A stretch of 57,196 bases of DNA, filler included, from Dugesia japonica (lineage: Eukaryota): NCBI GenBank assembly GCA_001938525.1. It is 4 parts of 4 records of this genome, joined end to end, with 100 filler letters (N's around TTAATTAATTAA, not from the genome) between each part and the next. Parts side by side here need not be neighbours in the genome. Positions count along the whole stretch, not along the records: positions 45,730 to 57,196 come from MQRL01628537.1; 3 more parts are not named here. One strand, 5' to 3'. Positions 15,031-54,877 of this stretch are shown in pieces. Numbering within the stretch: position 1 is the first letter of the stretch; each line of letters opens with the position of its first letter. The notes under the pieces are model-generated. The model was given only the letters and a program-made list of their open reading frames with translations. It ran no database searches and was not told the DNA's origin. The position numbers were made by a program, and so were the translations under genes.

Positions 15031-15117
15031 TATAATTAATATGTTAATTTAATTTAAATAGATACAAAAAAATTAATTTTCAAAAGGAATTTTATAATAA
15101 ATTACTGTAGATATTCA

Positions 15118-15282
<165 letters not shown>

Positions 15283-15391
15283 TTAAAACATTTGTATCCT
15301 AAAATCATTCTTATTATTTGACACGCAGATTTAGTAATCACGCTAATCAAAAATCTAATTAATAAGACAAAACAGAATTATGTATAACATA

Positions 15392-30268: not shown

Positions 30269-30670
30269 AAACATATGTCCAAATGGGTAAATTTCCACAA
30301 ACAATAAAAGGCATTGGTTTCAATGTAGTTTTAGGACCATGTTTGACTCCAACTCTGAAAAACGGTGAATTTTCAATTAACTGCTTAAAATAATCGGCAT
30401 TTTTGCGTCTAAAGTAACTTCCTAATCAATTATAATTGATTTATTGACTTAATTATCGAAACAGAATTCACTTTGCATATGAATAAGTGAGAATGATCCA
30501 ACTTCGAGACCTGATGAGAATATCTTCATAAAAAGGGACTTTCCTGCATTTGATGCCCCATCAAGTAGAATGCAAGTGGTTTTGCCGGATTGTAGCAATA
30601 GTAAAAGACCAATTGCACAAATACGATAATGCAAGGGATTAGTTTCCCCCCGTAAAATTGAGATTGTGTT
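30269..30670 (-). pseudogene. SF3 helicase, parvovirus NS1 / papillomavirus E1-like (endogenous viral element)
   Basis: Walker A GKTTCILLDGASNAGKSLF. Past two stops and a frameshift it continues SEFCFDN*VNKSIIID*E (Walker B), DYFKQL, RVGVKHG (B') and MPFIVCGN (C). Truncated by the contig end. Confidence 0.8.
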
Positions 30671-30820
30671 TTTTAATAAAATTATTAATAATGATAGTAA
30701 ATTGCTTATTAAAATAAAAAGTATTACTACTAACAAAATCTTCAATAAAGTAAGAAAGTTTTTCATAAACTATAAAAGTATTCAAATCCATAAAAATGAT
30801 AAAAAAGACTAAAACTGATT

Positions 30821-31093: not shown

Positions 31094-31588
31094 TTATAGA
31101 TAATTGAATATTACTGGTATTATATATGTTAAAAAATATAAATTATCGTGAAAATAATGAATTTGAAGCCGTCTTTCTAATGCTTCTCGAGTTGATTGCA
31201 ATAAATCGTATGGATATATTAATGAAACATCGTTAACACAGATTATTCGAGGCATACGTTTTGGTATTCTAGCTGTCGAATATTTAATGTCAATCATGCT
31301 TTCATATTCACAATCATATAAGTGAATAAGCTCGGTGACTGGCCATTTACGGAAATCAATGTCATCAATAACAATTCCGTTATTATTCTCAGTAATTAGA
31401 TTGAAACTCTGCCTATTTGTAACTAAACAGGGTTTAGTAAAGTGTGCTAATGCGAAGCTGGTTTTACCGATACCAGATTTGCCAACGAATACATGGGTAA
31501 CATCATCGTATACATCGAAAAAAGGATGTTTAAATTTGTAATGATGTGGAGTAATAATCTCACCATATTCGGATTTTAAATTTTCCAT
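31094..31588 (-). CDS. rep: CRESS-DNA-virus-type Rep, SF3 helicase domain
   Basis: Walker A GKSGIGKT, Walker B GIVIDDIDF, B' IDIKYS, motif C RIICVN and Arg finger ALERRL. Confidence 0.88.
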   Translation of the reverse strand: MENLKSEYGEIITPHHYKFKHPFFDVYDDVTHVFVGKSGIGKTSFALAHFTKPCLVTNRQSFNLITENNNGIVIDDIDFRKWPVTELIHLYDCEYESMIDIKYSTARIPKRMPRIICVNDVSLIYPYDLLQSTREALERRLQIHYFHDNLYFLTYIIPVIFNYL

Positions 31589-31898
31589 TATACATTTTTT
31601 TTAGTTATATAAGTGAACGGATCTCGCTTTTTTAAAAGATTTATTGCTTCATTCAAATTTTCACAATTTAATAAATTATTCCAAATATCTATTTTATTTG
31701 TCTTACATTTGCATGGTATGCCATAATTATTCTGTATGCCACCATGAACTCGAGTATGTTCTTTAGTAACATAATCGAGTATTCTTTGCTTATCATTTTC
31801 ATGTATTGGCGTACAAAAAGGAACCATTAAACGATTTCGAGCTACAGTAAAGTGGATGCTCTCTTTAAACTCGAAATACAACTGCAAATGGCGGTAAC
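31588..31898 (-). CDS. rep: CRESS-type Rep exon 2 (HUH endonuclease motifs II and III)
   Basis: After acceptor tttag (31900-31899): (G)YRHLQLYFEF (motif II) and ILDYVTKE (motif III YxxK). Joins the helicase frame by a -1 shift in an A8 run at 31595-31602. Confidence 0.8.
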
Positions 31899-31942
31899 CT
31901 AAATAATATTTATTTTTTTTATTATTATTAATATAATTTTAC

Positions 31943-32186
31943 CTGATGGAGACATTTCCTCTTGACCGAGAGCATATTGGATGCCGTTTTGTTGGAACAA
32001 TTCACTATATCTTCCAGCATTTGCACTATATTGTTTATACGATAATGATACGTGCCAATTTCTATGACGGCTGTTTGTGGAGCATTTAAATCGGAGATGT
32101 GATTCAACGTCTGGGTACTCATTATTTTTATGAGGTGAACCAGAATCTTCATGTTTTGTATCCAATTCTTTTCTGGGCTCATTCAA
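31943..32186 (-). CDS. rep: CRESS-type Rep exon 1 (motif I region)
   Basis: RHRNWHVSL (position of RNWCFTL motif I) and YALGQEEMSPS-G, then donor G|gtaaaa at 31942. Confidence 0.75.
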
Positions 32187-32360
32187 TAAGAAATATATAA
32201 GAAATTCAATAAGAAATATTTCTAATTGTTTTATTTTTTTAAAATTAAATAAAACTGATAGAGATAGAGTATATCATGATTTATTTTCAAATGTATATTC
32301 AAATAAACTCGATTTTTATTTTATATTTTGTAATCATTGGAAAAATAAACATACATTATT

Positions 32361-33441
32361 TTATTTAAATAGAGAAACAGAACAAGTTTTAACAACAGAT
32401 GAATTTCGATCTTCAAACTTTTAAATTTAATTTATGTAAACACTTTCTAAGCTTGCTTAATATATACAAGTATATATACGATTAATTGTTTTATTAATTG
32501 TTGTTTTTACTATACTGTAATTACTATAAATACTTGTTTTACATGTTTTTGGATTTTCATTTGCATCTCTTAATGAAATTGAATTTGTTACAATTAATCT
32601 TCCATATAAAATAAATATATATTTAAGGTTTAGTGGATTTTCAATAATAATAATAAACTCTTTGGTTGAAAAATAATCTCGATCTTTACCTCGATCATGA
32701 TCACTGATTGAATCATTATATTCTTCAACTCTTATTTTTAAGTTTTTTATATTATAAATTATTTTAAACCATTTATTTTCTTTTATATGAATTTTATTTA
32801 TATATATTTTTTTATTTATATTCTCTTGAAAATTAATTCTATTAAAAAAATTATTAAATTGATTTATCATTTTTTTTATTTAAATAGAGAAAGAGAACAA
32901 GTTTTAACCACAGATGAATTATTTGAAATCTGATTTAAATCATCATTTCAATCATTTAGTTTTCATTTGTTTTACTTTTACATTTATTATCAAACTTTTT
33001 TTCAATTGATAAATTTTTGTAACTCAGACTCTTAATCAATAAATTATTATTATTAATATCAGTTGTGATGATTTTTTCAATTGATAAAATTTGTGAATTT
33101 TTATGCAATTTACCAATTGATATGTTTTTTGAAAAATTATTTTCATTTATAATATCATCCCTCAATTGTAATTCCTTTTGTTGATATTATTTTTTCATTA
33201 TCACCTCCAAATAAAATTCGCGTAGCTTGCTCTCCAAGGAATGAAATTATTAAATTTATTACTGAAAAAGTTTCTTCAACACAATTAATTGTTTTATTAA
33301 TTGGTGTAATTAATATACTGTAATTACTAATTACTATAAATACTTGTTTTACATGTTTTTGGATTTTCATTTACATCTCTTAATGAAATTGAATTTGTTA
33401 CAATTAATTTTCCATAAAAAATAAATCTATATTTAAGGTTT
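32361..33441 (-). other. Duplicated decayed ORF modules of unknown function with a repeated upstream motif
   Basis: 32480-32630 is duplicated at 33283-33441 (LKY.FI.YG.LIVTNSISLRD.NENPKTCK). A 45-bp motif is repeated at 32361-32405 and 32877-32920. Confidence 0.5.
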
Positions 33442-35784
33442 TGTTGGGGTGAAACACCCGATAATGGTGATAATATCTTCAGGGACTCAAAAGTGGGGTG
33501 CCAAGAGGAGATAAGACTTGGAAAATTAAAAACAAGCAACAATAATTACCAATTCATCAATAATTTGTGGATCAATAATAAGAAGAGGACCCGGGGAAAA
33601 AAATTATAAACGAAAAATATTATAATAAGCCAGAGGTGAATAATTATAATTAAGAAAATTATAATTTAATATCTGAAAATCGGAAGTTGTCATGAAAATA
33701 TAATGTAAAATTAACTAGAAAAATTAATTAATTTATTTTGAAAAAGAGAAATTAATTGATAAAAATCAGTTTAAGAAGAATATCTGTACTCAGAAAAGTC
33801 GGAAGAAGATCAGGAAAGAAAAATCAGAAAGATAAAATCACGATGCAATTGAATTTCACAATGGAAAAGTCATACCACTTTCAAGAAGGTCGGGAAGATG
33901 TTCTGAAGAATAGGCCAATAAGGGGTTTTAAAACAAACAAAAGACATGGAAAACACGAAGTGTCTTAAAAATAGGCACCAATAATGAATTAGAAAATCTT
34001 AGAATATTTTAGAATTTTACAAATGGCTCCATTCAGAAGTGGTTTACCAAAAACAAAAATAACTAACCAACGAGAAAGCAGTCGGGGTGCACGAAGAAAG
34101 GTATAAAAGGTCCCCAAAATTTAGACGGAAAAACAACAATTTTCTAATTAATTGAACTATTGAAACTGTTAATAAAAATTTGGGAAAAGAATCGTGAAAT
34201 CATTTGGAGAAAGATAGAAGTAATAGAACTTATAATATCACCCGGACTAATTTTTATAGGAAAAAGGACAAGGAAAACATTTATTCAGTCTGATTCGGAT
34301 CTATATTTTGCTTTTAAGAAAACCCGTTGCAGAAATTCAACTTCTAATTCTAAATAGTGAGTAGTGTANTTATTTAAGTTATGGTTATCTACTTAATTAT
34401 TTCAAAAACAATAAAATTATTTATGTGTATTTTATGTTTGATTTGAATTATAATTAGAAAACAAAAAATCAACATTGAATAATCTTGAGTTAACCAATTA
34501 CACGCAGTTAGTTTCACTAATAATCCGAGGCTTTTCTGTTAAACATCAATGCAGGATAGCTTTTCCCGAGACATCAATCTAAAATTTTTTTCATTAAGAA
34601 ATTCATCTCGTTAAACCACAGTATGTGTCATGTTAAACGCAGAAACAATTGCTATCCTGAAAATATTTTCTTATGTGGTTTGAAAATATCGATTGATAAT
34701 CGAGTATTATCAGACCACTCAAGTACACATAAGGAGTAGGTGTGTCTGATAGATGCACTGAATTGGATTCTCTGAGTCACATCTGAAATTAGGTTATTAT
34801 TTGACAATTTAATACAAAGTATAATGGAATCTCTATCTGCAGTGTCTTGGTTAATAGTATAGAATGATTTCATTAAAAAATAAAATGCCAACCATGAATA
34901 TTTAATAATGTAGTGATCCCCGGTCAACTGGAATATTTCGGAGAAATTTAGGGCTTTGGATTTTATAGATTATTATTCGTACTATGATCTAACGGATGTA
35001 ATAGAAAAGATGAGTCTTAGTCCAGATATTCAGGCTATCTACATTAACTAATTATTGTTGGGACCATGAGAAGAATCCTCCCCATAAAATGTTGTGATCA
35101 ATTGGTTGATTGTCCAGTTTTGTTTTTGTTGATCAGGATTATTTAACCCCTTTTGTAATTTGATATGATTTTGAAAAATAATATTTGTGTGGACTTAGTT
35201 GATAAATCTTACGAGGAGTACAGACTCATTAGGTTTTTACTACTAAAATTATTATTATTAATTATTGAAATAGGGAATAACTTGGTATTATTGTTATTAT
35301 CTTTTATTATTATTATTTTATGTGTAGGAGAATTTGTTGAGCCCGGAAGTTGGGACAACCGGGTTGTATGTTGTGTTGAACAACGGTGCATCCGTAATAG
35401 AGAAAGTGGCGGTAATGATGATAATACAGAACCGACCACCAATAACGAAAATTAATTATACTTGATGTTCCTCAGTTGTTCTTTTTGTTGATAATAAAAT
35501 TGCATTTGTCCTGAATTGAGTCTTCATTAGTTAATGGATAGGTTCATTTGGATTAGTTAAGTTATCTTCGTTATTTGATATTCAAATTTAAGTCATTCGC
35601 CACTCTCAGTAAACTTAATTTAGATTTTTGCTTTTTATTAACCGACTCATTAATTAAACTAAATGTTAAACCATTTCTTCTCTTTCTAGTGCATTCATTA
35701 CTCAACCGTGTAGTCATATCCACTAAAAAAATACGTGAAACCAGCAAAGACATCGAGATGTTTTGGGAGTTATATAGATTAGCG
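33442..35784 (+). mobile_element. Partial third copy (C) of the LTR-like multi-ORF element
   Basis: Starts TGTTGGGGTGAAAC like copies A and B. Has GTATAAAAGGTCCCC TATA, CCGTTGCA and a GTGAGT donor-like site. ORF-c homolog ctag|(V)HSLLNRVVISTKKIRETSKDIEMFWELYRLA at 35690-35784 is cut by hAT sequence. Confidence 0.75.
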
Positions 35785-37638
35785 TAAATAAAGTGGGAGT
35801 ATTAATTTCTGAACTTGAAGAAATTACAAACGAAAAAGGATCTCGAATCCAGCCCAACTCGGGTTTCTTCAAAATTTTGAATCGTTTAGAAATGTTCTCC
35901 ATTAGCCCTGTGAGATGGTTAATAATCATATTCTTTGTTTCTTGAAATTGATATTATTACTAATAAAAAACTCAGGCATACATAGAAATAATTCAATATT
36001 GTTTTTTTCAATTTCACCTTTCCAAAAAATAAATTTTTAAAAAGCCTCTATTATATCACCAAGAACTAGTATATTTGTTTCTCTTCCTTGTAATCTCAAA
36101 TTCAAATAATTAAAATTTTTAAATATGTCAACAAGATAACAAATATTTAGAATCTATTTTTTGTTTACAAATAATTGAGAAAGATGGGGGATTTTATGTG
36201 ATAAAAACAATCAAACCTCATCTTTGAGATCAAAAAAACATCGAAATATTCTACCACGATAAAGTCATCTTACTTCGTTTTGTAAAAGAAGAGTTTTATA
36301 ACTAGAACCAATCTCGTAGCAAAGTATAGTAAAAATTCTGCTATTTAAGCTTCTACTTTTTAAAAAGTTAATCACATTAGCTGCATCATTTAATACTGAA
36401 CATAGATCTTCCTGCATTTCTTTCGCTATTAATGCTACTCGCTATTAATGTATCATACAATGATTGAAAACTATATCTGGTGCAATTTGTTTTATTATAC
36501 CTTTCAGCCATTTTTTATCTTTGGTTAGTGCAGCTGCACCATCAGTACAAATAGAAACACAATTGGACCATGAAAGTTTATTTTGTTTAAAAAAGTTATC
36601 AAGAAGCTCAAAAATTTTCTCACCATTTGTTCTTTCCATCAGAGCCTTGCAAAATAGGAATTCTTCACAAATATCACCTGCGAAGCAGTATATTACGTAT
36701 AAAATGATTTAAGCAAATTTTAAGATATCTGTAGAATCATTTAATTGTATTGCACAAACTTTACTATCATACAAACGACTAAGCAAAATTGATTTTAAAT
36801 TAATGGCGATACTAGTAATACGCCGTTAAACTGTGTCTTTTTTCCTCCATGTATAATCGACACCATTTTTATTGCAGCACGGAGAACTAGAGATTCTCCA
36901 ATGATGTGTGGCTTTTTATTTTTTCCTATTAGATACGATACTTCCAAAGATGCCTTTAAAGTTTTTTGTGTAACTATTGTATTTTATTTGGCTTTCTATA
37001 TTACTGGCACGTCTTTCATAATAAGATTTATCCTTATTAATTAAGTCCAGATTATTCGATTCTAAATGTCTCTTCATTTTAACTGGCTTCATACTTTCGC
37101 TGGCTAGTTTTTCAGAACATATTACACACAATGGACGTTGCTCATCAACAGTGTAAGTAAATCCATATTTGATATAATTCTCTAGACATTTCCTAGATCT
37201 TTTCGATCCTTTCACATTATAAGATGTTGACACTTCTTTAGACATTTCTGATTGAATCCCCTTTGAAGTATCAGTGTTTAAACTCTCCAACAATATTTTT
37301 CGACCTTTGCCGGGGTTTACAGATTCAGAATCAACATTTTCACTTTCGTTAGTTTTTGAACGANTTGTTCTCACTACCCATTTATCCATAATTAGTGTTT
37401 TTTAATCAAAATAAAGAAAATAATTTACAATAAATGATTATTAATGATTATTATTAAATATTAATGATTAATATAAGATAATTCAGTACAATTTCTATCA
37501 TATTTTTCTGATTCCTAAGTCGGTTAGATGTCCAATGACCAATCTGGTCTGTTTAACGTTAATTAATGTACCATGATAAAGTTAATTTTTTTGCGACCCT
37601 GCAAAACAAGTTAACGACCCATACTTTGCACATCACGG
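35785..37638 (-). mobile_element. hAT Charlie/Buster-type (ZBED5/SCAND3-like) transposon, decayed and 3'-truncated
   Basis: RPLCVICSEKLASESMKPVKMKRHL, ICTDGAAAL, NHCMIH and WIRDPF. 5' terminus CCGTGATGTGCAAAGTATGGGTCG at 37638. Confidence 0.88.
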
Positions 37639-39952: not shown

Positions 39953-41231
39953 CAGTGAAACCTCTCTAAGTTAAAAGTCATTGTGTATAAATTATTTTTC
40001 AAGTTACCGAGTTTTTTAACTTAGAGAAAATAAGTCAAAATTTGTGTCATATTTCTTGAAAAGTTATTGTACATTCTAATTTCTAAATTACAATTAACTA
40101 CCGATCCACCGTATTGCATCCAAGATGGTCACACGACGTGTAAAATCACTCACATAAGTGCATGAATCTGCTTCTAAGACCAATTTCTGACGCAAAATTT
40201 GCAATAGAAAATTTTATCTTGGAATTTTGTATTATTCTTTGATCAAGCGGTTGAGCGTCAAAGGTCATATTTGGCGGAAAGAACAGTTGAATATCTTGAT
40301 GGGATGCTACATTGTCAATAACTAGGAGAATGTGTCGCTTTTCTATCTTTATTTTCTTGTCGACGTCTTTCAGCCATTCTGTGAATATTTTGCTTGGTCT
40401 CCACGCTTTTTTGTTATTACGCCAAATGACCAGAAGTTTCTCAACATCTATGCAAGAAAATCTGAATGCACGTGGATATGCTGCGTGGCCGATCATAAGG
40501 GCTTGAGTTTTTCTTCAACAGTAAGAGCAACAAGAAAAGTCGAATAATAATTTATGCTTAATTTGACTTATGTTAATATTACCTGTCATACTTGACTCTA
40601 GAAGGATAGAGATACGATCTTTGGACTGTTTTGTACCTTTTCTGTCTTCACCTCGCTCTGTAATGGATCTATTAGGAGTTGGACGAAAGAATAGAGCCAT
40701 TTATTCGGTATTAAAGAAGTTTTTTTGATCAAATTTATCAATAATTAAGGTGATTATCTTTTTGTGGAACTCTACGGCACCATGTCCAAGTCTTCAGCAT
40801 CACCACATAACGCTCAGAAATCTATGTTGTTCCTCTTACGAAACTTCTTGAGCCACCCATTGCTCCCTTTGGAAATCGGTGATCCCCAGTGCAATGGCCA
40901 TCTTTGAAGCCTTCTCTCTAAACATGGAACCATAGATTGGAATGTTTTTCTTGTGACACATTGTAAAGAAATTTAAAACTTTCGTGTTTAGTTCATTTTT
41001 ATCATTTGCTTGGAGTTTGCGTTTTCTACATGAGTCACAATTGTTTTGCCATAAAGAAGTGATCTCATCACGATTATTCTCGATAACTGTGGCGGTTCCA
41101 TTTGACACTCCAAAGTGTTTTGCGAGGTCTGCTCCTTTGTGCCCTTTGTCAAGGAAATCCAAAATGGATTTCTTTTGATCGATTTTTAGTTCTACTAGTG
41201 ACTTCCGTTGTTTTTTAGTGGATGTGTACAT
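39953..41231 (-). mobile_element. Tigger/pogo DNA transposon remnant
   Basis: TA|CAGTGAAACCTCTCTAAGTT terminus. psq and CENP-B HTH (40836-41231). DDE pieces KQSKDRISILL, LLVIDNVASH and FFPPNMTFDAQPLDQ. Confidence 0.88.
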
Positions 41232-41849: not shown

Positions 41850-42600
41850 AACATACGAAAAATCAGATAATTCATCAATTTTTTCATCAAAGTGGAAGTA
41901 TAAACAATCATTCAGAAGGATGATACCAACGTACAATTATCCTATTACAGAAATTGATAGCAATATAGAAGAACTCAAAAATAAACTTTTAGAAACTTAC
42001 AAATATATTAAGAATATCAAATCTAAAAGTAATGAAAACGAAATTATTAAAGAAATAAAGAATTTGAAATCAANNNNNNNNNNNNNNNNNNNNNNNNNNN
42101 NNNNNNNNNNNNNNNNNNNNNNNNNNNNNNNNNNNNNNNNNNNNNNNNNNNNNNNNNNNNNNNNNNNNNNNNNNNNNNNNNNNNNNNNNNNNNNNNNNNN
42201 NNNNNNNNNNNNNNNNNNNNNNNNNNNNNNNNNNNNNNNNNNNNNNNNNNNAATAAAATCGTTATTTTTAGCAGTTAAATGTCACGAACCAGTTCCATCA
42301 TCTATGTACTGTGTTCCTAAAGATCTTAAAACAAAAATAAAAGGAATACCTATTGTCAATGCTTCGAATATTCCATCTACATCATTATGCAAATTTATGG
42401 AAGATTGTTATAGACCATTATTGAATTTTGTTCCAGGACATTTGAAAAATAGTTATGAGTTTGTTGAACGAATTAGAAATTATGACTGGAATAACGATGA
42501 TCAATTTGGTTCATTGGATCAATTCCCATTGAAGTACTGGAAAATGTCATCGATATTGTAAGAGATTTCTTTGAGAGATATAAAGAACATATAGGTATAA
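41850..42600 (+). mobile_element. Penelope-like reverse transcriptase N-terminal fragment
   Basis: PSSMYCVPKDLK...IPIVNASNIPS...LCKF...PLL...HLKNSYEF...FGSLD follows the PLE RT pattern. Confidence 0.75.
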
Positions 42601-42639
42601 TAATCACAACTGGCTTCATCATATTAAATATTTGAATTG

Positions 42640-43757
42640 TCATTCGTTTCTTCTAGTCTTTGAAAAGCTTCTTTCTGAATATTAGATCTTTTTTGCCGCT
42701 TGACAAAATCGAGATATATGTCCGGATTTCTTACAATTTTTCCATAGCAATGGTTTGTTACAATTACGAGTAATATGATCTTTCCTATCGCAATTATAAC
42801 CTTTTATTTCTTGTTTGATCTTTTGAACTGCATACTTTGGAGAATCTGTTTCTTAGTTTCTTTCCAAATACTTGATACGATTTTCAAGCACAATTATTTT
42901 TCGTTTTAATATTTCCATTTCTTGCCATTTTTTTGTGTTAACATGATTGCTAATAATTCGCAATTTATCATTATGTTGAGTTTTATTTTCCTTTTTCATA
43001 AAATTAAAAGCGTCTTCCTGAGTGTTTAATTTCATAATTTCCGTGGCTCTAGCTGCCAAACAATTATTAACCCCTTTCAAAAATATTGATAAGAGAGTCT
43101 TTTCTCTATCAAATTCATCATAATCTGGAATTTCAAGAAATTCCAGCAACTCTGATAGCAGTTAAATAATGTTTAAGAGTCATATCTTCCTGCTTCAAGG
43201 ATAAAACATTAATTATTGAAATTACCTTGGTTAACCTAATTTGATATAATTCAAATAACTTTGTCTTCAGCCATTTATAATTTGATTTTTTTAGATTTAA
43301 ACTCTGGAATTGTTTGGAATTCAAAAAATGCTTCTTCTTCTAAACTTTTCAATAACTTCTCTGAGCGTTCTGTTGGATCCCCGATTTTTTGTATTTCGGC
43401 AAATTTTTCGAATTCGGTAATATGATTAGAAATATTTTCTCCAATTGTAAATTTCTTCGAAAACATCTTTTTTTATTTAACCAGTCGATAAGTTCCTCCA
43501 CAAATGATCGTGACGCCATTTTATTGTAATTGTTTGAAGAAATGTGGGTTTACTAAAATTTATTTAAAATCTGCACTAATTAATTAATATTATTTAAACA
43601 CATATCATAGAAACAAAACATCATTCGCTATATAAATATTTAATTTTTCAAATTTTCAAACAAAACATCATTCGCTATTAAACTATTTAATTTTTAATTT
43701 TACAAATTTTGAAAATAAAAATATTTGTTAAAAAAATTTTGTATATTATCTATGACA
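42640..43757 (-). mobile_element. Ty3/Gypsy 5' portion (LTR, PBS-like site, decayed gag)
   Basis: Putative LTR starting TGTCATAG at 43757. TGGCGTCACG PBS-like site at 43518-43509. Gag fragments. Two decayed knuckles, YNCDRKDHITRNC and NCKKSGHISRFC. Confidence 0.7.
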
Positions 43758-44169: not shown

Positions 44170-45582
44170 ATGAGCGATGATAAATTACAAAGTTTTTTTA
44201 GACTATTAACTGAGCACGATTTTGATGCGAATAAAACAGTTCCAGATGAATTCAAATGTGGGAAATGTATGAAAATTTTAATTGAAGCTTGTCAAACTCG
44301 CTGTGGTTGTAGATTTAGTAAGACTTGTGTTGATGAAATGATGAATAATGGATGTACATTGTGTCATGGAATCACGGGTAATTGTAAAATTGAATTATTG
44401 TCTAAATTTCAGTTGGATAACAAAACAAATAAACAAATATCGAAACTATTAATGAAATATCCAGTGGAAATGTGCTCATACGAATGTGAATTATTAGAAA
44501 TGAGTGAACATTTAATAATATGTGGAAAGAAAAGCTTAAAATGTCAATTTGATAAGTTGGCCTGTGATATGAAGAAAATGACAAATGAAAAATTGATTGA
44601 AGATTTTCCATTAGATAATTTAATCACATCAAAATATTGATTGACATGATTGATAATATTAAAAATGAAGTTAAAGAATTGAAAGAAAATGAATTGAATG
44701 CAAGTTTAGTATTGAAAGATGAAAAATTAAAATCAATAAATGCAGAAATGCTAAATATGAAAGTAATTTCGATGATTGTTAGTAATTAATTATGAAATTG
44801 TTTATTTAGCTAGAGAAATTGAAGATGGAAAAACCTTTGAATGATAATTGCAAAATTAAAATCAGATAACAAGGAAGAATGTCAATTGATAAAGGTGAAC
44901 ATAAAAAAATTTGATGTAATTTGTAATAAGTATAGGCAGCGAAGATAGAACTTGATGAACAAATGAAAACTCTTGAGTATAAAATCAATGAAATCAATTT
45001 GGAGTTGAAGATACTATGCGAAAATAGTAAAATTGAGTTGATAAAAGTCAATTTTTTGTTGAATTGTTGTAAATATATAGAAATATTTCATGAAGTGTGC
45101 AAAGAAACCACCGATAAGTCATTAATTCAAATGGGGATCGGTCAGAAACTAAATCGACTAGAAAGAAATATTGATAACAAAATGAAAGGAATAATTGAAA
45201 TGATGATCGATAATCCTGATAATATTGGTGATATATTTGGGGTGATTATTTTATCTGGAGTGAATATTTTTATGCTCGACTGCATCCGTATAAATTAAGA
45301 TTGCACATTTATCCGTATGGTGATACATTGGAGATTTGCATATGCAATTATGATGATGTGATAAATCAATATTTGTCGTTTCCATTCACAGCTGATGTAA
45401 CAATAAAAGTCTTTAATAAAAATAAACGAGGGGCGAGCAAAAGTATCAAAAAATCTTGCCGAATAAATAAACCTGAAAATAATTCATACAATGCAAGTGA
45501 TTTATTTATTTATCCATATTCGACATTGAGAAAAAGAGGAAAATTGGAATCAAATTGTTTTATTATTGAATCCTGTGTTTAA
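44170..45582 (+). pseudogene. TRAF: TRAF-family gene (RING, TRAF zinc finger, coiled coil, MATH), disrupted
   Basis: RING-like CGKCMKILIEACQTRCGCRFSKTC. Zinc-finger CSYECELLEMSEHLIIC. Coiled coil. MATH-like HIYPYGD...LSFPFTADVTIKV. Stops and frameshifts, and several Cys are lost. Confidence 0.78.
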
Positions 45583-45729: not shown

Positions 45730-45887
45730 GTGGTAGGTTTTCAGTTTACGGTGGTTGACCTTACTCTTAATGGAAGGTACACACCGATAAACCTTTATAT
45801 TCGGGTTCAATAATTTTTCCTTTCTTGTTATCGTTAAAATAAAGAAACTACACTTTTGAATACAGACATTTTATTTTATGAAACTAT

Positions 45888-46270
45888 TTAGAGCAAATCC
45901 AGCGCCCCTGGATCTAACCACTGGTTTGGTTCTGTTACCACGAAGTTGAAAACTGCGATGTCGTCATCGTCATCCCATTGTGTTACAGATGGGTTACCTA
46001 TTCGACGGGACAGGTCAGCAATATATTGCTTTAAGAACTCTATTTTCCGCATTAACAGCTGTTTGGTTTCGGTTTCCAAAGCTTTAGTTTGAGCCGCCAG
46101 ATCATTTTGCTTTTTTACAATTAAATCGAATTTTTTAATCAATTGATCCCGTTGATCCAAATGTCTCATAAGGGCCCTGTCTGTTTTACGTTTTAGGTGC
46201 CGTTCAACAAGCAAGCGGCGCATAATTCTATGGCACCTCCGGATGCTATTGGGGAAGTTACTTCGTGGCA
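45888..46270 (-). CDS. Element ORF-d, copy A (orphan basic/coiled-coil protein with acidic tail; terminal exon)
   Basis: Homology to copy B starts at acceptor ttcag|TG CCA CGA. 383 nt in both copies with no indels. AATAAA at 45875-45870. Confidence 0.7.
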
Positions 46271-46397
46271 CTGAATGAAAATCCATTAACAGAGAAACAA
46301 TAACAGTTATTATAATCAATTTTATCAGGTATTCAATGATGTAAAAAACTGAAACTAAGATTAAGATGTACAAATTTTTATTTATAGGAAATAAGAT

Positions 46398-46765
46398 TCA
46401 AACACGTGGATTGGGTTTGGCCTGGGTGGCCTTATCAATCAAGAGGGGGGCTAAAGGAGTCGCTGCTCTCAGCTTCAACACATTTTCCATCAAACTATTC
46501 TCCCGCTCCTGATAAGACTGAATAATCTTGGTGAAAGTTTCAACCTGGGACTTCCACACCCTCTCTTGATTCTCGGTGGCGTCCATCTCTGCTTTGAAAG
46601 CTAAACATTTTCGCTTGTATCGCTTTACTTTAGAGTCAGCCGCGGCGATCTCCGCTTCCCATCGCCTTTTGGCTAATCTATAAAGATCCCATGTGAGATC
46701 GAGATCTTCACTTGTCTCACGTAACTTTTTATGGGGAGCTTGAGACTTGTTTAGAGAAGAATGCA
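46398..46765 (-). CDS. Element ORF-c, copy A (orphan coiled-coil protein; terminal exon)
   Basis: Acceptor tttcag|TG CAT. 368 nt in both A and B. Homolog present in copy C. AATAAA at 46382-46377. Confidence 0.7.
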
Positions 46766-47025
46766 CTGAAAGATAAATAGGTAAAAGATGATACACATTA
46801 TCAGATGTTACTAAGCATTTGGGGTTCCTCAAATGGATAATGAACGAGGGTTCTACGATTAATTTTATTACAAATAGCATCCTGTATTATTATTATGTTA
46901 TTTTCCAAGAAATCTACTAAACGCGATTGCAAATTATTATTATTGGCAGAAATTTATTTACAAGAAGAATTGGAAATGACTACAATTCGAACACCTATTT
47001 ATTATGACAAACAACTACAAAGGAG

Positions 47026-47380
47026 TCATGAAGGATTAGTATTATTGTCGGTGTTGGGGGCAGTATTCTCGACATCAGTTATCCATTCGGCTCTCGGACT
47101 CCTCAGAGGAGATTAGCGATGAACGCTTGTATTGCAGGAGCTGGGGGAAGAGTGGTAGATTGGTAGGTGAAAGCGGTCGCTAGAGTGTGATCCAGCCCCA
47201 TCCATGTCTGATAACGCTGCCGTTCTCCGAAGTCATTAATACGGGCGACGATTGATTCGACCGGTGGTAGGTTTGACCGTCCACCAAGATACCGGCATCC
47301 TAATTATGCGGGTTGTGATATCGACGCAGAGTTATTCAATGAGTTCTCCTATCGACAACACGTATCCATATAGAGTCCAT
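47026..47380 (-). pseudogene. Element ORF-b, copy A (two stops and a frameshift)
   Basis: MDSIWIRVVDRRTH*ITLRRYHNPHN*DAGILV...DFGERQRYQTWMG, homologous to 51225-51578. Confidence 0.75.
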
Positions 47381-47522
47381 ACCTAAGAACAAAATAGGGC
47401 TATAAAAATTTAGATTATGCTGCATTAAGACATAACGGACGAATTATAAAAAATAAGAACTATAATATTTTATTCCATGGTATATTTAAACACCCAGATA
47501 TTCGTAATGCTAAGGGAAGTAA

Positions 47523-47705
47523 TTACTCCGCGTCTGAATCTACCTTCCCCTCCATGGGAAACATCTCGGTAAAACAGCGNAAGTCTGTTTCATCCGGATG
47601 TTCTATCCTACCATGGGTTATAAAGTGAGCTATTAATTGTTTTCTGCGAACCGCTGATCTCTGTCGTGCTATCTTTCGCAGAGCCCTACACAATTCGGCA
47701 GGCAT
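47523..47705 (-). CDS. Element ORF-a, copy A (60-aa basic orphan protein)
   Basis: MPAELCRALRKI...GRIEHPDETD.RCFTEMFP is conserved with 51711-51905. Acceptor tttag 3 nt upstream of the ATG. Confidence 0.65.
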   Translation of the reverse strand: MPAELCRALRKIARQRSAVRRKQLIAHFITHGRIEHPDETDXRCFTEMFPMEGKVDSDAE

Positions 47706-47799
47706 GAGCTAAATATAAGAATAACGTAATTTAATAACATCATTCATGATTTAGTTCCTTAAGAAAAATCCGGATCGGCATTACTTTCAGGTAATGCGG

Positions 47800-48260
47800 G
47801 TGGTATTAATAATAATAATGATAATAATCAGAATATGGATAATAATACTGATACTAAGAATAATATGGAAAATGGTATTAGCAACCCTAGTGGTAATAAT
47901 AACCCTTGCAAATTAATATTAATATAATCATAATCTTAAGAGTTATAGTAACACTCATAAAATAATAATGATGATAATAATAACGATAATAATAATAATA
48001 ATAATAATGATATTAGCGATCACAGCAATAATATTAATAATAATAATGATCGTCATAATGATAATAACCATAATAGTACTAGCCATAGTAGTGAGGTTAA
48101 TGATAATAGTAATAATGTGGACAATAATAATAATAATANNAATAATAATAATAATAGCAATATTAATGATAGAGATAGTAATAATAATAATAATAATAAT
48201 GGTAATATTAATAAACTTAATAATAATAGGATTTGTAGTAAAATTCAGACAAGGATTGAG
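47800..48260. repeat. (ATA)n-derived low-complexity tract inside element copy A
   Basis: Degenerate ATA/ATG triplets. Equivalent tracts occur at 52050-52600 (B) and about 35220-35320 (C). Confidence 0.8.
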
Positions 48261-50196
48261 AGAAATTACTCTCATTAATTACTTAATTTAATATAGTTAT
48301 ACTCCTTTATAACTTGATTTGCCGCAATTATGGGTTACCCAGCAACGCAAAAATAAGTTGATCGGTGATTCCGGCTGAGTAGTTGTGTAGATTAGTGGTG
48401 TGTGGGGTTTGGTGACTCAGCAGAACTTTTATGTGGTTATAAATAAATGTCGAAAAATTGGTTTGGCTTTTTTGTGTTAATAATCATGACGAGAATGTAA
48501 AACGACAATTTCATTGGTGATTATTTTACGTGATAATACGAGGGAATTTTCCCTATCAACGGTAAGAACACGAGATGAATTGTCTACTAAATGTGCATAA
48601 TGCAGAATAAGGCAATTCTATTTAATTTAGCATACGAACTCAACTACCTGAATCTAAAAATAAATTGAATACATATATAATTATGCTATAAAATTAACTA
48701 GAAAAATTAGCAAAATTTAACTCCAAATGTGGATTTATTTATAATGATTTACATACTAAATTTGTAAGAAAAATTTAACAACAACTAAGACAACACATGA
48801 TTACTTTTCTAAATATTTTCGTTTTCTGCAACGGAATAAAATTCGCTAATAGACGTTATTCTTTTATGCGATTACTGGGATTCCGGTTCTTCTTCTTGCT
48901 AAATCAATGGTTTTAGTAGTTTCTAGATTTAGTTGGAAAGCGTCTGCAATTACAATTTCCTCCTTGATTTATAATTAACTGTTTCGATTCACAAAGTTGT
49001 TTATAGTGGTTAATACACCGAAATCGAGATAATAAATTTTTTGTAGTTGGTTTTTTCGCTTAAAAACAGGGGTCCTTTTATACGATTTCTGAGACACCCC
49101 AACTTGTCTGGCATTGGCCAGTTATTTTTAATTTGAATTATTTGAATTTTTTTGGATCTGGTGCCAATCTTCCAAGAATTCTGGAGTTCTGATCGGTAGT
49201 TATTTTTAGACTGGCACATGATATCTGTGTCTTTGTTTTATTTATTTTTCAGGTCTGCCATTGGTCCAAACTTCGAACCNNNNNNNNNNNNNNNNNNNNN
49301 NNNNNNNNNNNNNNNNNNNNNNNNNNNNNNNNNNNNNNNNNNNNNNNNNNNNNNNNNNNNNNNNNNNNNNNNNNNNNNNNNNNNNNNNNNNNNNGTTATG
49401 GGCATAAAATGAATTTTCGTTCCAATTTTAATTAATTTTCGTTTAAAATTAATTGGTATACTTTTGTAATTGTTTCTTCTTTTTTATTAATTATTTTCTT
49501 CATTAATTTATTTAATTTTTGATTATTATAATTANNNNNNNNNNNNNNNNNNNNNNNNNNNNNNNNNNNNNNNNNNNNNNNNNNATTTTGTCAAAGTCAA
49601 ATTCCAATGCCCTGGCAGATACTCTTCTCGGATTTTCTTGAACCCTTTTCGTACACTCAACAGGAGCAAGGTTATGGGCATAAAATGAATTTTCGTTCCA
49701 ATTTTAATTAATTTTCGTTTAAAATTAATTGGTATACTTTTGTAATTGTTTCTTCTTTTTTATTAATTATTTTCTTCATTAATTTATTTAATTTTTGATT
49801 ATTATAATTAATCCTCTTTATTTTAGTCCTCTGAACTTCCAGTTTCATTTNNNNNNNNNNNNNNNNNNNTTTCTTGTTTGATTTTCCATACCCGCTTTTC
49901 TTTTATATGTTTCTTCCTGTAAATTTATTTCTAGTTTGGCATTGAATATTTTACGATCCTCTTTGATTTTATTTATTTATTTATTTTAATTCACTGAGTG
50001 TTTCACCCCAACAAATCACTCCCCGCTTAATTAAAATTCCGTGATAGGTCTTCAGTTTATGGCGGTTGACCCCTCTCTTAATGGGAGGTGCGCACCCATA
50101 AACATTTGTATTTGGGTTCATTTTTCCCTACGATTTTCAGTGAAGAAGGAAAGTACAATATTGATTAGATATCTTTTATTTCATAAACAAAAGAAA

Positions 50197-50579
50197 TTAT
50201 ATTAAATCCAGCGACCCAGGATCCAACCACTGGGTCGTGTCGCTTACGGAAAAGTTGAAGGCGGCGATATCGTCACCATTGTCCCATTGCATTAAAGTTG
50301 GATTGTTTATCTGGTGGGAGAGGTCGGCTATATATTGTTTAAGGAATTCTATCTTTCTTAACAATACTTGTTTGTTCTCCGCCTCGAGTGCTTGGGTTTG
50401 CGATGCTAAATCATTCTGTTTTCTGATGATTAGGTCCAATTTCTTTATGAGTTGATCACGTTGGGCTAAATGTTTGAGAATGGCCCTATCTGTTTTACGT
50501 TTTAAGTGCCTCTCAATAAGTAGGCGACGCATAATGCGGTGGCATCTTCGGATGTTGTTGGGGAAACTAATTCGTGGCA
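50197..50579 (-). CDS. Element ORF-d, copy B
   Basis: tttag|TG CCA CGA. VPRISFPNNIRRCHRIMRRLLIERHLKRKTDRA...QWLDPGSLDLI. AATAAA at 50180-50175. Confidence 0.7.
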
Positions 50580-50705
50580 CTAAATAAAGGAACATTAACA
50601 AAGGAAATAATGAACTTTATCGTTATCGAATTTATTAGAAGATCAATGATATAAAACAGAGACCAAGACTAGGGTATACAAAATTTTATTTACAGGATAG
50701 AATGT

Positions 50706-51073
50706 TTAACCACGAGAGGTGGGTTTCGTCTGGGTGCCCTTATCAATCATAAGAGGCTCCAGGTAGGATTTTGCCTTAAGAAGCAGGATATCTTTGACCA
50801 GTTTATTCTCACGGTCATGGCTGGACCGGATGATTTCGGCGAACGACTCCACCTGCACCTTCCCCACTCTCTCTAGGTCCTGGACAGCTTTCATCTCTTC
50901 TCGGACGTTAGTACACTTGGTTTTATAACGTTTTACTTTAGCGTTGGCTGTGGCTGTCTCCGCTTCCCATCACCTTTTCGCTAGTCTGTAAAGATCCCAT
51001 GTGAGATCGAGATCTTCACTTGTCTCACGTAACTTTTTAAGGGGAGCTTGAGATTTGTTCAGAGAAGAATGCA
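50706..51073 (-). pseudogene. Element ORF-c, copy B (single CGA>TGA stop)
   Basis: ttcag|TG CAT. Same length as copy A. TGA at 50972-50970 where A has CGA. Confidence 0.7.
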
Positions 51074-51224
51074 CTGAATATTATTATGGTTAAATATGAC
51101 AATTACAAGGTCTATTGGATTAACATTAACAAAACGAAAGCTGATCTTGTGCAACGAAAGAAACATAATACAGGAAGACAAAACTTTAAACACCTATTTA
51201 TTTATTTTAAACAACAGACAAAAT

Positions 51225-51578
51225 TTAGGTAGCAGGATTAATATTGTTGATATAAGGGGCCGTATTTTCACTGTCTATGATACCAGACGGTTCCCTAACC
51301 CCCCAAAGAAGGTTAGTTATAAACGCCTGTACTGCAGGAGCTGGAGGTGGAGCGGGTGCTTGGTAGAAGGAGGTCGCAAGAGTGCGATATGGGCCTGTCC
51401 AATTCTGATATCGCTGCCTCTCGCCAAAATCTCTTATCCGAGAGATAATTGACTCTACTGGAGGTAAGTTAGTCCTATCGACTAGGATTCCCGCGTCCCG
51501 ATTGTGGGGATTATGATGCCGGCGGAAAATGATTCGTCGTGTTTTCCTATCTATGACTCTCTCCCATATCGATTCCAT
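51225..51578 (-). CDS. Element ORF-b, copy B (117-aa orphan protein)
   Basis: Intact ATG-to-stop ORF with acceptor tatag 2 nt upstream. Homolog in copy A. AATAAA at 51202-51197. Confidence 0.7.
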   Translation of the reverse strand: MESIWERVIDRKTRRIIFRRHHNPHNRDAGILVDRTNLPPVESIISRIRDFGERQRYQNWTGPYRTLATSFYQAPAPPPAPAVQAFITNLLWGVREPSGIIDSENTAPYINNINPAT

Positions 51579-51710
51579 ATCTATAATTAACAGAAAAGTG
51601 GTTTATAACGTATAACTCTTAAATTACACAATAATAAACACGAGAATAAACAATTAGATTTAATCCGGTTGCACATTTATTTTATAACTAACAATAAGTC
51701 ACAGATTACA

Positions 51711-51905
51711 CTAGGTCGGCGGACTCTCCACATCTAAATCCACGGAAGGCACTATGGGGAACATTTCTACGAAACAGAAAAGATCCGCCTCGTCCGGGTG
51801 TTCCACTTTTCCCTTACTTAGCAGATGGGCGATGAACTGTCTCAAGCGAACAGTTTGCCGACGTCGTTTTATCCCTCTAAGAGTTCGGTACAACTCGGTT
51901 GGCAT
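51711..51905 (-). CDS. Element ORF-a, copy B (64 aa)
   Basis: MPTELYRTLRGI...GKVEHPDEADLFCFVEMFP. Acceptor tttag 3 nt upstream. AATAAA at 51681-51676. Confidence 0.65.
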   Translation of the reverse strand: MPTELYRTLRGIKRRRQTVRLRQFIAHLLSKGKVEHPDEADLFCFVEMFPIVPSVDLDVESPPT

Positions 51906-53379
51906 AGACTAAATGAAAGAGAAAATCAATTTTAGATCCTGATTCCCGTTTCGGAATTAAACAAAAACATTCTCACGACCGGATATTAACAACGGGAGGA
52001 TTAGTCCGGCAACACTATATTACTCTATTGAGGTAATTGTAACTTACACTCGTTGATCGTTATCAAGGGTCCTGATAATATTTTTATTCTTTGACATAAG
52101 AGTATTAACGATATACTCGGCATTTTCCGAACCTATTAATGATAGTAATTGCCAGGAGCATGTTAATAAATATCATGACGCCAGTATGAATTATAATATC
52201 AAGGATGCTGTTACGCATAGTAATCGTAATATTAGCAATAACAGGTTAATAATATCTTTAATAATAATTTGGACAATAATTGTAACAATACCGGTAAAGA
52301 CAATATTAGCAATGGTTGACTAATTTTGAAGTTATTGATAATCAAGGTAACAATTATTATTAATCCTGATGGCAAATGCGATAACGATAATAATCTTAAT
52401 CATAATGATAATCGCAATAGTATAAATAATAAGAATAAGATAATAAAAATACTAATAATAATGATGATATTAATAACAATAATGATAATAATACTATTAA
52501 TAGTGTTGGTAATGATAGAAAGAATAATGATGATAATAATCATAGGCCAAAGTCTTTATGGTATTGATAATATTATCCGAAAAAGAAGTAAGTCCGTTTA
52601 TTTTAGAATAACGTCAATACTGTGAAAAATAAATTTTTAAATCTTCGCCCTACGGTTACCTTGGTTATTCAACAATTTGTATCTGCCAAAGGAAAAACGT
52701 GCGGTGATGATACCTGTGTGTATAGGGTGATGAGTCAACTATCTCTATCGAAAATCCATTTTTAATGTAAAAGTTGTGTGTAGAAAAACGGAGTGTTTGA
52801 AATTTAGTGATTTTATATTTGCAAACGATGACATATTGTAACAAAATTTGTGATCCTAATTCTAGTGAGTGTTCGGGATAGGGTGTGTTCCAACTCTCGT
52901 GGTTTATGTCATAATAGGTCATTCTATTGATCGATGAAAATTTTGGAGAGGAATTTACACTCTTATTCATACATAATTGTTAGAGAAAATTTAAAGAACA
53001 TTAAATGTTTATATTTATTAATTCTAATCATATAAAATACTCACAACAGATAATAATAAACATCTCACTTACTAATAATTCCGGATAAATGCAACGGGAA
53101 TGGTATGGATAATGAAATTTGACTCGATTGCTTTTTCTTCCTGGCTGACAACTGGCACTTTTATTTTCTAGAATCACTTAGTAATTTTGATTAATAAGGT
53201 AATAGTTCAATAACTAGAATATTGGATTTTCTGTTGACTAGACTTTTGTTCCTGTGTTAATAATTTCGCAAAATGTTCGGTAATTCTCTGACAATTATAA
53301 ATGGTAAGAAATTTGTTGTTTAAAATTTTGTTCTTGAAAAAAGTTGTGTTTTTTAAGAGTTTTTCTCTTCTAAATTTTA

Positions 53380-53590
53380 TAAGGCTTATATAGCCTTTTC
53401 TGACGCATCTCGGCATCCTTGCCATTGGCTGCTATTTTAAATTTGAATTTTCTGTTTCCTATTGGTTCTAACGCCAATTTTTTAAGATTTTTCTCGAGTT
53501 TTGGTGCCACGATTGGCAGCTATTTTTAGAGTGACACATGACAATTGTGTCTTTGTTTTATTTATTTTTTCAGGTCTGCCATTGGTTCAA
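53380..53590 (-). promoter_or_regulatory. Putative LTR U3 promoter (several CCAAT boxes and TATA)
   Basis: Four minus-strand CCAAT motifs upstream of TATATAAG (about 53392-53385). Equivalent TATAAAAGG in copy A (about 49082) and copy C (about 34102). Confidence 0.5.
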
Positions 53591-54059
53591 ACTTCAAACC
53601 CCTACAGTGGTTCTCCTGATGAGGTTGGGGTTTTGACGTGCCCAATTTTCAATGCCTTGGCTGAGACCCTTCTCGGATTTTCTTGAGCCCTTTTCGTACA
53701 CTCGACAGGAGCAAAGTTATGGGCAAAAAATGAATTTTAGCCCTAATTTTAATTAATTTTTGTTTAAAATTAATTGATATTCTTTGGTAATTGTTTCTTC
53801 TTTTATTAATTATTTACTTCATTAATTTATTTAATTTTTCCGATTATTATAATAAATACCTTTCATTTTAATCCTCTGAATTTCCAGTTTCATTTAACAG
53901 CGTGCTCCTGATTTTTTTCTTGCTTGATTTTCCATAACCGCTTTTCTTATATATGTTTCTTTCCGTAATTTTATTTCTTGTTTGGTATTGAATGATTTAC
54001 GGTCCCCTTTGATTTTGTTTTCCATTTCACTGGGAGTTTCACCCCAACAATATTATCAA

Positions 54060-54877
54060 TTTTGATATTAAATCTTACTTTGCACTTTATAAGCTTTTAT
54101 CTAAGCACTCATAATTAGTGATTAGTTCCTATATAGATATTTAAGTAATATGATTCATTTTATAGTTTTTAATATTATTAGTATCGTATTATTATTGCTT
54201 GGAACTTTGGTAGTTATTTATATAATTATAATTGAATCTTGTTATTTCTCTTTGACTCATCAATGTAACGTTCATACCCCTGAAGCCACGATACTCCAAA
54301 GAAATTTTGTTTCGAAAGATGGATACCATATAGTTCCGCTGAATTCGAGAATGATGGATAGTGATGCAGGAGAATGCATCGCAAAAATTCTTGCAGCTAC
54401 TAGGTTTCATCCCCCAGACGTAAATTTCAATCAGAAAGATGAAAAATCGATTAGTAGAGAAGAAAAGAAAATACATCAAAAGCCTAGAAGCCCAACAATA
54501 AACACCCACAAAACGACAATTTCAAGTGGGAGATCAAGTATTTAAAAAAAGACAATGAACGATACTGAAGTCCATAGAAGATCGCGGAGAAGATACCTTA
54601 TGCGAAGAACAAATGGTAAAGCTGGAAATGAACGTTGAAAAGCTTTAAAAAAATCGAGGTGGATGTAATGATTAAAAATAACAATTAAAAGTTTAAAGAA
54701 AATTTCAGAAAACATTTAAAGAATTTAAATGTTTAGAAACGTTGTTTAAATATTCAGATTTTAAAAAAAGATTTACAAACAAATCAGTGTCAAATTGAAA
54801 TAAATCTGCCTCAGAATTAGTAATCAAATATTTTTAAAATATTGATTTTAATTTTACAAAAATATTTTCATTTTACA
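54060..54877 (+). mobile_element. Ty3/Gypsy integrase remnant, PPT and probable 3' LTR
   Basis: HQCN and FQVGDQV integrase remnants. Purine tract GAGGTGGA followed by TGTAA at 54664. TTACA candidate ends at 54858 and 54877. Confidence 0.55.

Follow-up and report, generated by a model that had tools for sequence, protein, structure and literature searches.

Does a long terminal repeat (LTR) element that carries no gag or pol maintain protein-coding genes of its own? The question is raised by positions 45,730–54,049 of a 57,196-nucleotide (nt) stretch of Dugesia japonica DNA (assembly GCA_001938525.1). This whole stretch, hereafter the window, has an overall guanine-plus-cytosine (GC) content of 26.4% and contains many assembly gaps. 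Two repeat units, B and A, follow one another here on the minus strand, and a third, C, lies elsewhere in the window on the plus strand. Our analysis indicates that the feature is real and behaves as a non-autonomous LTR element would that carried an accessory cassette in the style of a virus, here of four open reading frames (ORFs a–d).

The window holds exactly three occurrences of the terminal sequence TGTTGGGGTGAAAC, namely 54049(-), 50013(-) and 33442(+), so that the three units with a common start described in the initial annotation were recovered as exact matches. The same 14-nt start, beginning with TG, is found in three units with different flanks. The head-to-tail arrangement proposed for A and B was also borne out: unit B runs directly into unit A, and the two have a length of 4.0–4.3 kb. 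Unit C has in common with the others only its first 14–18 nt, the CCAAT and TATA boxes, an 8-mer, an ATT tract and a decayed ORF-c; it also holds an ATG-free leader, and it is without ORFs a, b and d and without the 3' end. A hAT-like piece sits where unit C breaks off. Upstream of C, an AT-rich module of ~515 nt is repeated in tandem at 32356–33441. The module carries a 137-amino-acid (aa) ORF on the minus strand with no Pfam or PHROGs match, and its second copy is cut by unit C. The start of C is a point inside this second copy, while the rest of the interrupted module was not found anywhere else in the window; the claim that C cleanly interrupts the module therefore stands on one side and not on the other.

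Units A and B had been taken for like repeats in a TRIM-like tandem array. Their identity at the start is 86.6, 87.6 and 87.8% over 134, 259 and 90 alignment columns (about 87% over 483 columns). It drops to 70.2% in the 114 columns that follow, which reach the TATA box. In the leader and beyond it is 60–67%, compared with 63–69% in shuffled controls. Over the first 440 nt, C and B are 64% identical, which is chance level and indicates that the first ~440 nt are not conserved between subfamilies. Identity of 87% in non-coding DNA, where synonymous sites are saturated (see below) and C is at chance, argues for an LTR pair. The simplest reading is that the first ~530 nt of A would be B's own 3' LTR, aged by ~13%, with a junction near 49190 beyond which the 5' LTR of a distant subfamily takes over. 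With the start of A as B's 3' LTR, the purine tract at the end of B becomes a polypurine tract in its normal place. The step in identity, from ~87% over the first ~530 nt to chance afterwards, points to recombination between two subfamilies, giving the order LTR-internal-LTR-internal, and speaks against the tandem array; the likeness of A and B as repeat units thus holds for their shared start and not for the remainder, which is at shuffle level. The first 47 codons of ORF-c are less diverged between the units than the rest (proportion of synonymous differences, pS, 0.30 vs 0.73), which is a second sign of mosaicism. Positions 49395–49534 are a 100% copy of 49671–49810 between N gaps, and this duplicate is probably an assembly artefact. 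A near-exact duplicate (98.4%) at 12579–13492, also beside N gaps, is probably a scaffolding artefact.

All four ORFs bear the mark of selection. ORF-d aligns without gaps between A and B, with 93 of 126 aa identical (74%, where the initial annotation gave about 70%), a pS of 0.81 and a proportion of nonsynonymous differences (pN) of 0.14. Its differences are distributed 27/16/63 over the three codon positions, in agreement with the indel-free frame and many third-position changes noted originally, and the shifted frames have no such synonymous excess. Identity is 33/59 aa in ORF-a (pS 0.82, pN 0.27) and 78/120 aa in ORF-c (pS 0.57, pN 0.20). ORF-b aligns in two blocks, with differences by codon position of 10/6/24 and 6/5/20, mostly in third positions. 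Synonymous sites are saturated in ORFs a and d, and the stop positions of ORF-c and ORF-d align between the units. The GC content of the ORFs is 43–51%, as against 25–27% in the spacers, confirming that the ORFs are richer in GC than their flanks. Together, these sequence comparisons support the conclusion that ORFs a–d were all under purifying selection, as had been suggested for the cargo genes. ORF-b of A is broken and ORF-c of B, which has the C-terminus KGTQT, contains one in-frame stop after 33 codons, indicating that the present copies are decaying and that selection acted earlier.

The most unusual feature of the unit, missed in the initial annotation, is the architecture of its leader, acceptors and poly(A) signals. 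The CCAAT and TATA motifs reported for the repeat are present in all three units, with two to four CCAAT boxes upstream of each TATA (49082, 53392 and 34102), and the TATA lies ~660 nt from the unit start in A, B and C, allowing for A's gaps. From the TATA to a donor-like site, ATG is absent from all three leaders (shuffle P of 0.032, 0.047 and 0.017), which are mutually unalignable. Windows of 290 nt without ATG number 16 of 1722, and three of these are the A, B and C leaders. The 8-mer CCGTTGCA has three occurrences in the window, one per leader, 17–25 nt upstream of the donor; a shared GC-rich 8-mer was obtained in 0 of 20000 shuffles, and any shared 8-mer in 2741. C has no GTRAGT other than its donor, and in B the donor is the first GTRAGT downstream of the TATA; the base before the donor GT is A in all three leaders.

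Further downstream, a pyrimidine-rich YAG acceptor is found at the same position in all eight ORF copies and in C. The distance from TATA to the first acceptor is 1373, 1483 and 1587 nt across the three subfamilies. An AATAAA follows the stop by 13–49 nt in 8/8 ORF copies, the distance for ORF-b of A being measured from a point one base off; the background frequency is 1425 of 10543 windows of 51 nt. The unit therefore looks like one transcription unit, in which we infer splicing from these signals. The adenovirus major late unit and the parvovirus B19 map likewise use one promoter and a shared leader, with alternative acceptors paired with alternative poly(A) sites. These are DNA viruses with replication and capsid genes, and the likeness is one of working, not of membership. 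Such a virus-like gene layout is unexpected in a parasitic non-autonomous element.

The acceptors also bear on how the ORFs would be started. In ORFs a and b an ATG lies 2–3 nt past the acceptor. The exons of ORFs c and d begin AG|TG, and their open conserved frame is the third phase. Given the A before the donor GT and the TG at the exon start, a splice of the leader to c or d would form an ATG. In ORF-c the first 59 codons are free of in-frame ATG, although the first 47 are its best-conserved part, and in B stops closely precede it; within the exon of ORF-d there is no in-frame ATG before codon 16.

Two other features were observed between the leader and ORF-a. The motif GGTAACC is present at 48339 and 52660 (-), ~740 nt after the TATA in A and B, and C has a GTGATC site at 811; GGTAACC is a candidate for a second splice donor or a decayed primer-binding site (PBS). 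The (ATT)n tract reads as poly-Ile/Leu on the element strand and as Asn/Asp-rich on the opposite strand. No conserved protein was found in the stretch from the donor to ORF-a, where the best scores stemmed from the ATT tract.

At the 3' side of unit B, AAGCGGGGAG occupies 50028–50019, 5 nt before the start of A at 50013, so the purine tract noted at the internal repeat start was confirmed, at one junction only. The last bases of B read AAGCGGGGAG-TGATT and are followed by A's TG. The conserved 3' block upstream of it ends CCTATCA in B and CCTACCA in A, and from this CA there are 28 nt to the purine tract and the new terminus. Because A and B are at chance identity after the TATA, the 3' end of the LTR cannot be fixed. 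As originally claimed, gag and pol are absent: there is no such ORF or Pfam match in the units, including the stretch from donor to ORF-a. Membership in the LTR class is likely, though neither a PBS nor, with A ending in a gap and C truncated, target-site duplications (TSDs) were identified.

Copy number was assessed by comparing four of the 24 listed sequencing runs with positions 49870–54200. Run X3, whose kind is not on record, yielded 7791 matching contigs, of which 258 are at least 99% alike, 877 are at 95–99%, 3026 at 90–95% and 3630 below 90%; they cover 30 of 30 bins. Depth in X3 is 627–3645 at the listed ORF-d sites vs 10–20 for exact-match pieces. Among the matches listed, ORF-d and the 3' block are linked by one contig with 29 differences, and the ATT tract and ORF-a by another with 59 differences. 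These data support a multicopy element with many diverged copies and, with the selected ORFs, the original description of a multicopy, gag-pol-less, LTR-like element. The claim of mobility is partly supported: the many diverged copies favor it, and no TSD was identified. The evidence for dispersal consists of copy C and the diverged contigs. One X3 contig skips ORFs a and b (joint 51216–52479), with 21 letters on its short side, which is weak; since C is also without these ORFs, a shorter subfamily may exist. A further joint, 53203–54051, is anchored on one side by only 21 letters and was therefore disregarded in placing the LTR end. The RNA runs X4, X5 and X8 cover 4, 14 and 8 of the 30 bins, nearly all through partial matches to the ATT tract, and 98–99% of the matching RNA reads continue unlike the stretch. 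In X5, one ORF-c bin reaches a depth of ~9 from partial reads.

Searches for homologues or folds of ORFs a–d returned no match in the libraries used, which are mostly microbial and make these blanks weak; for ORF-c, one of the two blank homologue searches covered longer proteins only. Pfam and PHROGs gave only weak coiled-coil hits (best E 1.8e-4). A match of ORF-d to a 2917-aa repeat-rich protein was rejected on reading, as it sums 11 short stretches. The ORF-d model is a single helix over residues 7–89 (predicted local distance difference test score, pLDDT, 80) with a disordered tail. There are 12 K/R in its first 35 residues, and 6–8 D/E and no K/R in its last 34. This architecture of basic region, coiled coil and acidic tail resembles bZIP proteins and suggests that ORF-d most likely encodes a bZIP-like activator or an RNA/DNA-binding regulator of the element; there was no bZIP profile match, only weak coiled-coil hits below the cut-off. 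The N-terminus of ORF-b has a WW-like look, with no Pfam support, and its single-sequence fold was unusable (pLDDT 39.5). ORF-c ends in DKGTQT in B and DKATQA in A. The motif bound by the dynein light chain LC8 is given as (K/R)XTQT in PMC7182775; B fits it and A departs at the last position. Judged by this KxTQT-like C-terminus, ORF-c most likely encodes an oligomer that binds LC8. None of the element's DNA patterns was found in metagenome and viral contigs, and Rfam gave five matches, all below the gathering score.

The interpretation we favor, with evenly balanced confidence, is that of a non-autonomous Gypsy-type LTR family whose ~4-kb unit would be spread by the Gag-Pol of another element while keeping small proteins of its own. 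The LTR promoter would make one pre-mRNA, the leader donor would be spliced to one of the four acceptors, and cleavage of each mRNA would use the poly(A) site of its own ORF. The start codon of ORFs c and d would probably, at somewhat better than even chance, be assembled from the leader's last A and the exon's TG; failing this, it might come from an upstream coding exon that both share and that has the same phase, possibly one ending at the second donor-like GGTAACC. Unspliced RNA reading through all four poly(A) sites would serve as the genome. Binding of U1 at a donor suppresses poly(A) sites in retroviruses, and U1 at the unused donor may help this read-through. The genome would be packaged and copied by a helper Gypsy element, with the plus strand primed at the purine tract and integration through the conserved terminus. 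The A/B tandem would have arisen by recombination of B's 3' LTR with the 5' LTR of an A-type element near 49190. More tentatively, and with rather more doubt than belief, we suggest that the units represent a long-lived satellite retroelement lineage that dropped gag-pol and acquired in evolution a regulatory cassette of four genes, with expression resembling that of a late unit in DNA viruses. Such a lineage would combine one LTR promoter, one ATG-free leader and four acceptor-plus-poly(A) modules with start codons built at the splice junction. Its orphan transactivator-like and LC8-binding coiled coils would steer the element's own expression or exploit helper particles.

Several observations weigh against this interpretation. 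No PBS was found: A and B are free of TGG from the TATA to the donor, and no TGG further on is conserved, in copies that are decayed. Neither an LTR 3' CA end nor a TSD or helper element was identified. The donor of A departs from the consensus, and the leader boundary was picked after inspection of the sequence, so that the leader P values are optimistic. An in-frame ATG lies five codons upstream of the ORF-d acceptor in both copies, and ORF-d might start without splicing. No splice joint was seen in the three raw RNA runs, of which 6–25% of each was read at a likeness of at least 82%. Summed X3 contig depth is not a copy number, and many of the matching contigs are partial or of low complexity. 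All of the protein functions are based on composition and short motifs, with no homologue. Finally, the 3' block keeps 16/16 predicted hairpin pairs in both copies, with one two-sided and three one-sided changes between the two sequences; the folding z scores of -0.4 to -1.7 are not significant, and we do not claim a hairpin.

As the main rival reading, the units could instead be internally deleted relics of a larger autonomous element, either Burro-like or a complex Gypsy. Promoter, leader and accessory cassette would then be real, and selection would have acted in a parent that had its gag-pol either behind ORF-d or in the interval from the donor to ORF-a. One reading of the 3' block gives ...VNRHKLKTYH immediately ahead of the purine tract, which recalls a Gypsy integrase tail; the changes in the block, however, mostly alter the aa by eye and 11/15 are transitions, a pattern more like that of a cis element than of coding sequence. 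Burro elements carry upstream accessory ORFs and tandem repeats (PMC6431247). Against a deletion stand the same compact layout and spacer lengths across subfamilies with saturated synonymous sites, the same two junctions in further diverged contigs, and a donor-to-ORF-a stretch without a trace of gag/pol. We regard such an origin as unlikely, although it keeps appreciable weight. It is improbable that the 4-kb unit as a whole represents a single giant LTR that has its genes in R-U5 and the CA of the 3' block as its end; A, B and C would then be LTRs, solo or recombined, from a very large element. In Ogre, LTRs reach several kb (PMC6431247), no PBS lies inside the unit, and by eye the end of the 3' block is a loose inverted match to the start (5/8 letters). 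The order of CA, 28 nt, purine tract and new terminus, without a PBS, is nevertheless the geometry of an internal 3' end.

It is also possible to read the four ORFs as an operon resolved by spliced-leader trans-splicing, not by cis-splicing to their own leader, although this seems highly improbable. The stop-to-acceptor spacers of 126–260 nt, each with a poly(A) signal and then an acceptor, fall under the 300-nt flatworm operon threshold (PMC12582326), and an AUG-ending leader would be in frame with ORF-a. The AUG-ending flatworm leader (PMC12582326) would not match the frame of b, c and d, where its own frame, counted from the acceptor, closes after 4–25 codons. Furthermore, the element has its own ATG-free leader and donor. 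The explanation to which we give the least weight is an endogenised small DNA virus or satellite, not a retroelement, with one promoter, alternative splicing and polyadenylation, integrated head-to-tail. It draws on the layout, which resembles that of small DNA viruses, on the lack of a PBS or reverse-transcriptase-related sequence, and on other virus-like Rep/helicase relics in the window. However, the unit contains no Rep, helicase or capsid ORF and has no relatives in IMG/VR, while a TG terminus common to three subfamilies with different flanks and the purine tract at the junction fit a retroelement better.

Table 1. Coordinates of the three units and their parts in the window.
Feature	Positions	Strand	Description
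Unit B	50014..54049	-	complete 4036-nt repeat unit: 5' LTR and internal region to purine tract
Unit A	45730..50013	-	starts as probable 3' LTR of B, continues as different subfamily, ends at N gap
Unit C	33442..36050	+	third subfamily, truncated; right end approximate
Unit C, parts		+	CCAAT 33915/33978; TATA 34102; CCGTTGCA 34324; donor ATA|GTGAGT 34357; acceptor 35689
U3-like promoter of B	53385..54049	-	terminal TGTTGGGGTGAAAC; CCAAT 53585/53516/53465/53428; TATA 53392
U3-like promoter of A	49075..50013	-	CCAAT 49264 and 49117; TATA 49082; contains gaps and artefactual duplicate
Predicted leader exon of B	53073..53367	-	no ATG; CCGTTGCA 53097; putatively spliced at donor TTA|GTAAGT 53072
Predicted leader exon of A	48805..49057	-	no ATG; CCGTTGCA 48834; putatively spliced at weak donor AAA|GTAATC 48804
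Imperfect (ATT)n tract of B	52380..52560	-	~850 nt after TATA
Imperfect (ATT)n tract of A	47800..48260	-	
Imperfect (ATT)n tract of C	35230-35320		
ORF-a of B	51711..51905	-	64 aa, basic; acceptor AG ends 51909; AATAAA 51681
ORF-a of A	47523..47705	-	60 aa; acceptor 47709; AATAAA 47474
ORF-b of B	51225..51578	-	117 aa, Pro-rich C half, intact; acceptor 51581; AATAAA 51206
ORF-b of A	47026..47380	-	broken by stops and frameshifts; acceptor 47383; AATAAA 47003
ORF-c of B	50706..51073	-	exon starts TG; acceptor 51074; AATAAA 50690
ORF-c of A	46398..46765	-	121 codons, coiled-coil-like, C-terminal KATQA; acceptor 46766; AATAAA 46382
ORF-d of B	50197..50579	-	126 codons; N-terminus basic, then a single long helix and an acidic tail; acceptor 50580; AATAAA 50180
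ORF-d of A	45888..46270	-	126 codons; acceptor 46271; AATAAA 45875
Conserved 81-nt 3' block of B	50041..50121	-	81.5% identity with A; candidate hairpin or relic of an integrase tail
Conserved 81-nt 3' block of A	45730..45810	-	abuts gap
Polypurine-tract-like AAGCGGGGAG	50019..50028	-	5 nt before A terminus

The window holds a number of other elements. A Rep-like relic at 31094–32180 (-), split over frames, resembles the Rep of circular single-stranded DNA viruses. It shows an HUH-like HLQ and YxxK stretch (31588–31938), followed by a presumed Walker A (GKSGIGKT) and Walker B (IVIDD); its helicase part has no match in Pfam, PHROGs, PDB or IMG/VR. Adjoining it at 30449–30766 (-) is a superfamily 3 helicase fragment with a weak PPV_E1_C match (E 0.01), which by eye is parvovirus-NS1-like. 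An ORF with TRAF6-like RING and zinc fingers (44170–44640 (+), E 9e-9) is followed by coiled-coil pieces; it looks intronless and broken downstream. The RING gene marks the host as an animal, and composition and repeats suggest a planarian-like one. Decayed Gypsy-like gag/pol pieces were recognized by eye at 600–8400 (-), 14900–17200 (-) and 42600–43480 (-). The Gypsy relic ending near 15400 has a purine tract-TTA-TGT junction that by eye is similar to the B/A junction and is unrelated to the unit, and the relic at 43470 has a PBS-like start, TGGCGTCACGA. No link was shown between the Gypsy-like pieces in the window and the 4-kb unit. Pieces of mariner-, hAT- and pogo/Tigger-like transposase ORFs, again by eye, lie at 13907–14917 (+), 36200–37389 (-) and 40146–41231 (-).

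How does the unit compare with described elements? TRIM and LARD elements keep only non-coding cis sequences (PMC4558846). The cestode ta-TRIM shares with our units a TG-started terminal repeat, the absence of gag-pol and many copies, with 3 nt from the polypurine tract to the 3' LTR where there are 5 nt here (PMC4558846). In size, the unit lies at the TRIM/LARD border of 4 kb. Unlike that of TRIM and LARD elements, its interior is coding, purifying selection having acted on all four ORFs, and the search for a PBS found none. The giant Burro/GYPSM1 Gypsy elements of planarians also combine accessory ORFs with tandem repeats in an AT-rich animal; compared by description, they differ in an interior of ~25 kb and a ~5000-aa polyprotein with known domains, where our units have 4.0–4.3 kb without these (PMC6431247). 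The sORF1 and sORF2 of the Drosophila MDG1 group are likewise small selected accessory ORFs, and an internal poly(A) site ends a short transcript after sORF1. That group, however, is autonomous and unspliced with two sORFs, in contrast to four ORFs here, each with an acceptor and a poly(A) signal (PMC11952523). CERV of C. elegans Cer1 is likewise an orphan: this helical regulator belongs to a Gypsy element and is translated from a spliced mRNA. Cer1 is autonomous and has one such protein, partly shared with Gag, unlike the four-ORF unit (PMC10309623). Non-autonomous DNA transposons that keep one accessory gene also exist (PMC13547354). The accessible parts of PMC11410931, 10.64898/2025.12.11.693146 and PMC13524379 hold nothing on this element family. 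With Repbase, Dfam and the original Burro paper and its supplements outside the comparison, the literature search found, in the portions accessible, no description of such a family or layout.

Non-autonomous LTR elements are usually treated as non-coding passengers. If our reading is true, a family that has maintained four orphan proteins by selection to the point of synonymous saturation would parallel, among retroelements, those satellite viruses that bring regulators of their own. The layout poses, within 4 kb, the question of how a full-length genomic RNA is made despite four internal poly(A) sites, and elements of this kind escape domain-based repeat annotation. Even if the units are only deletion relics, the cassette would still point to an undescribed complex Gypsy lineage.

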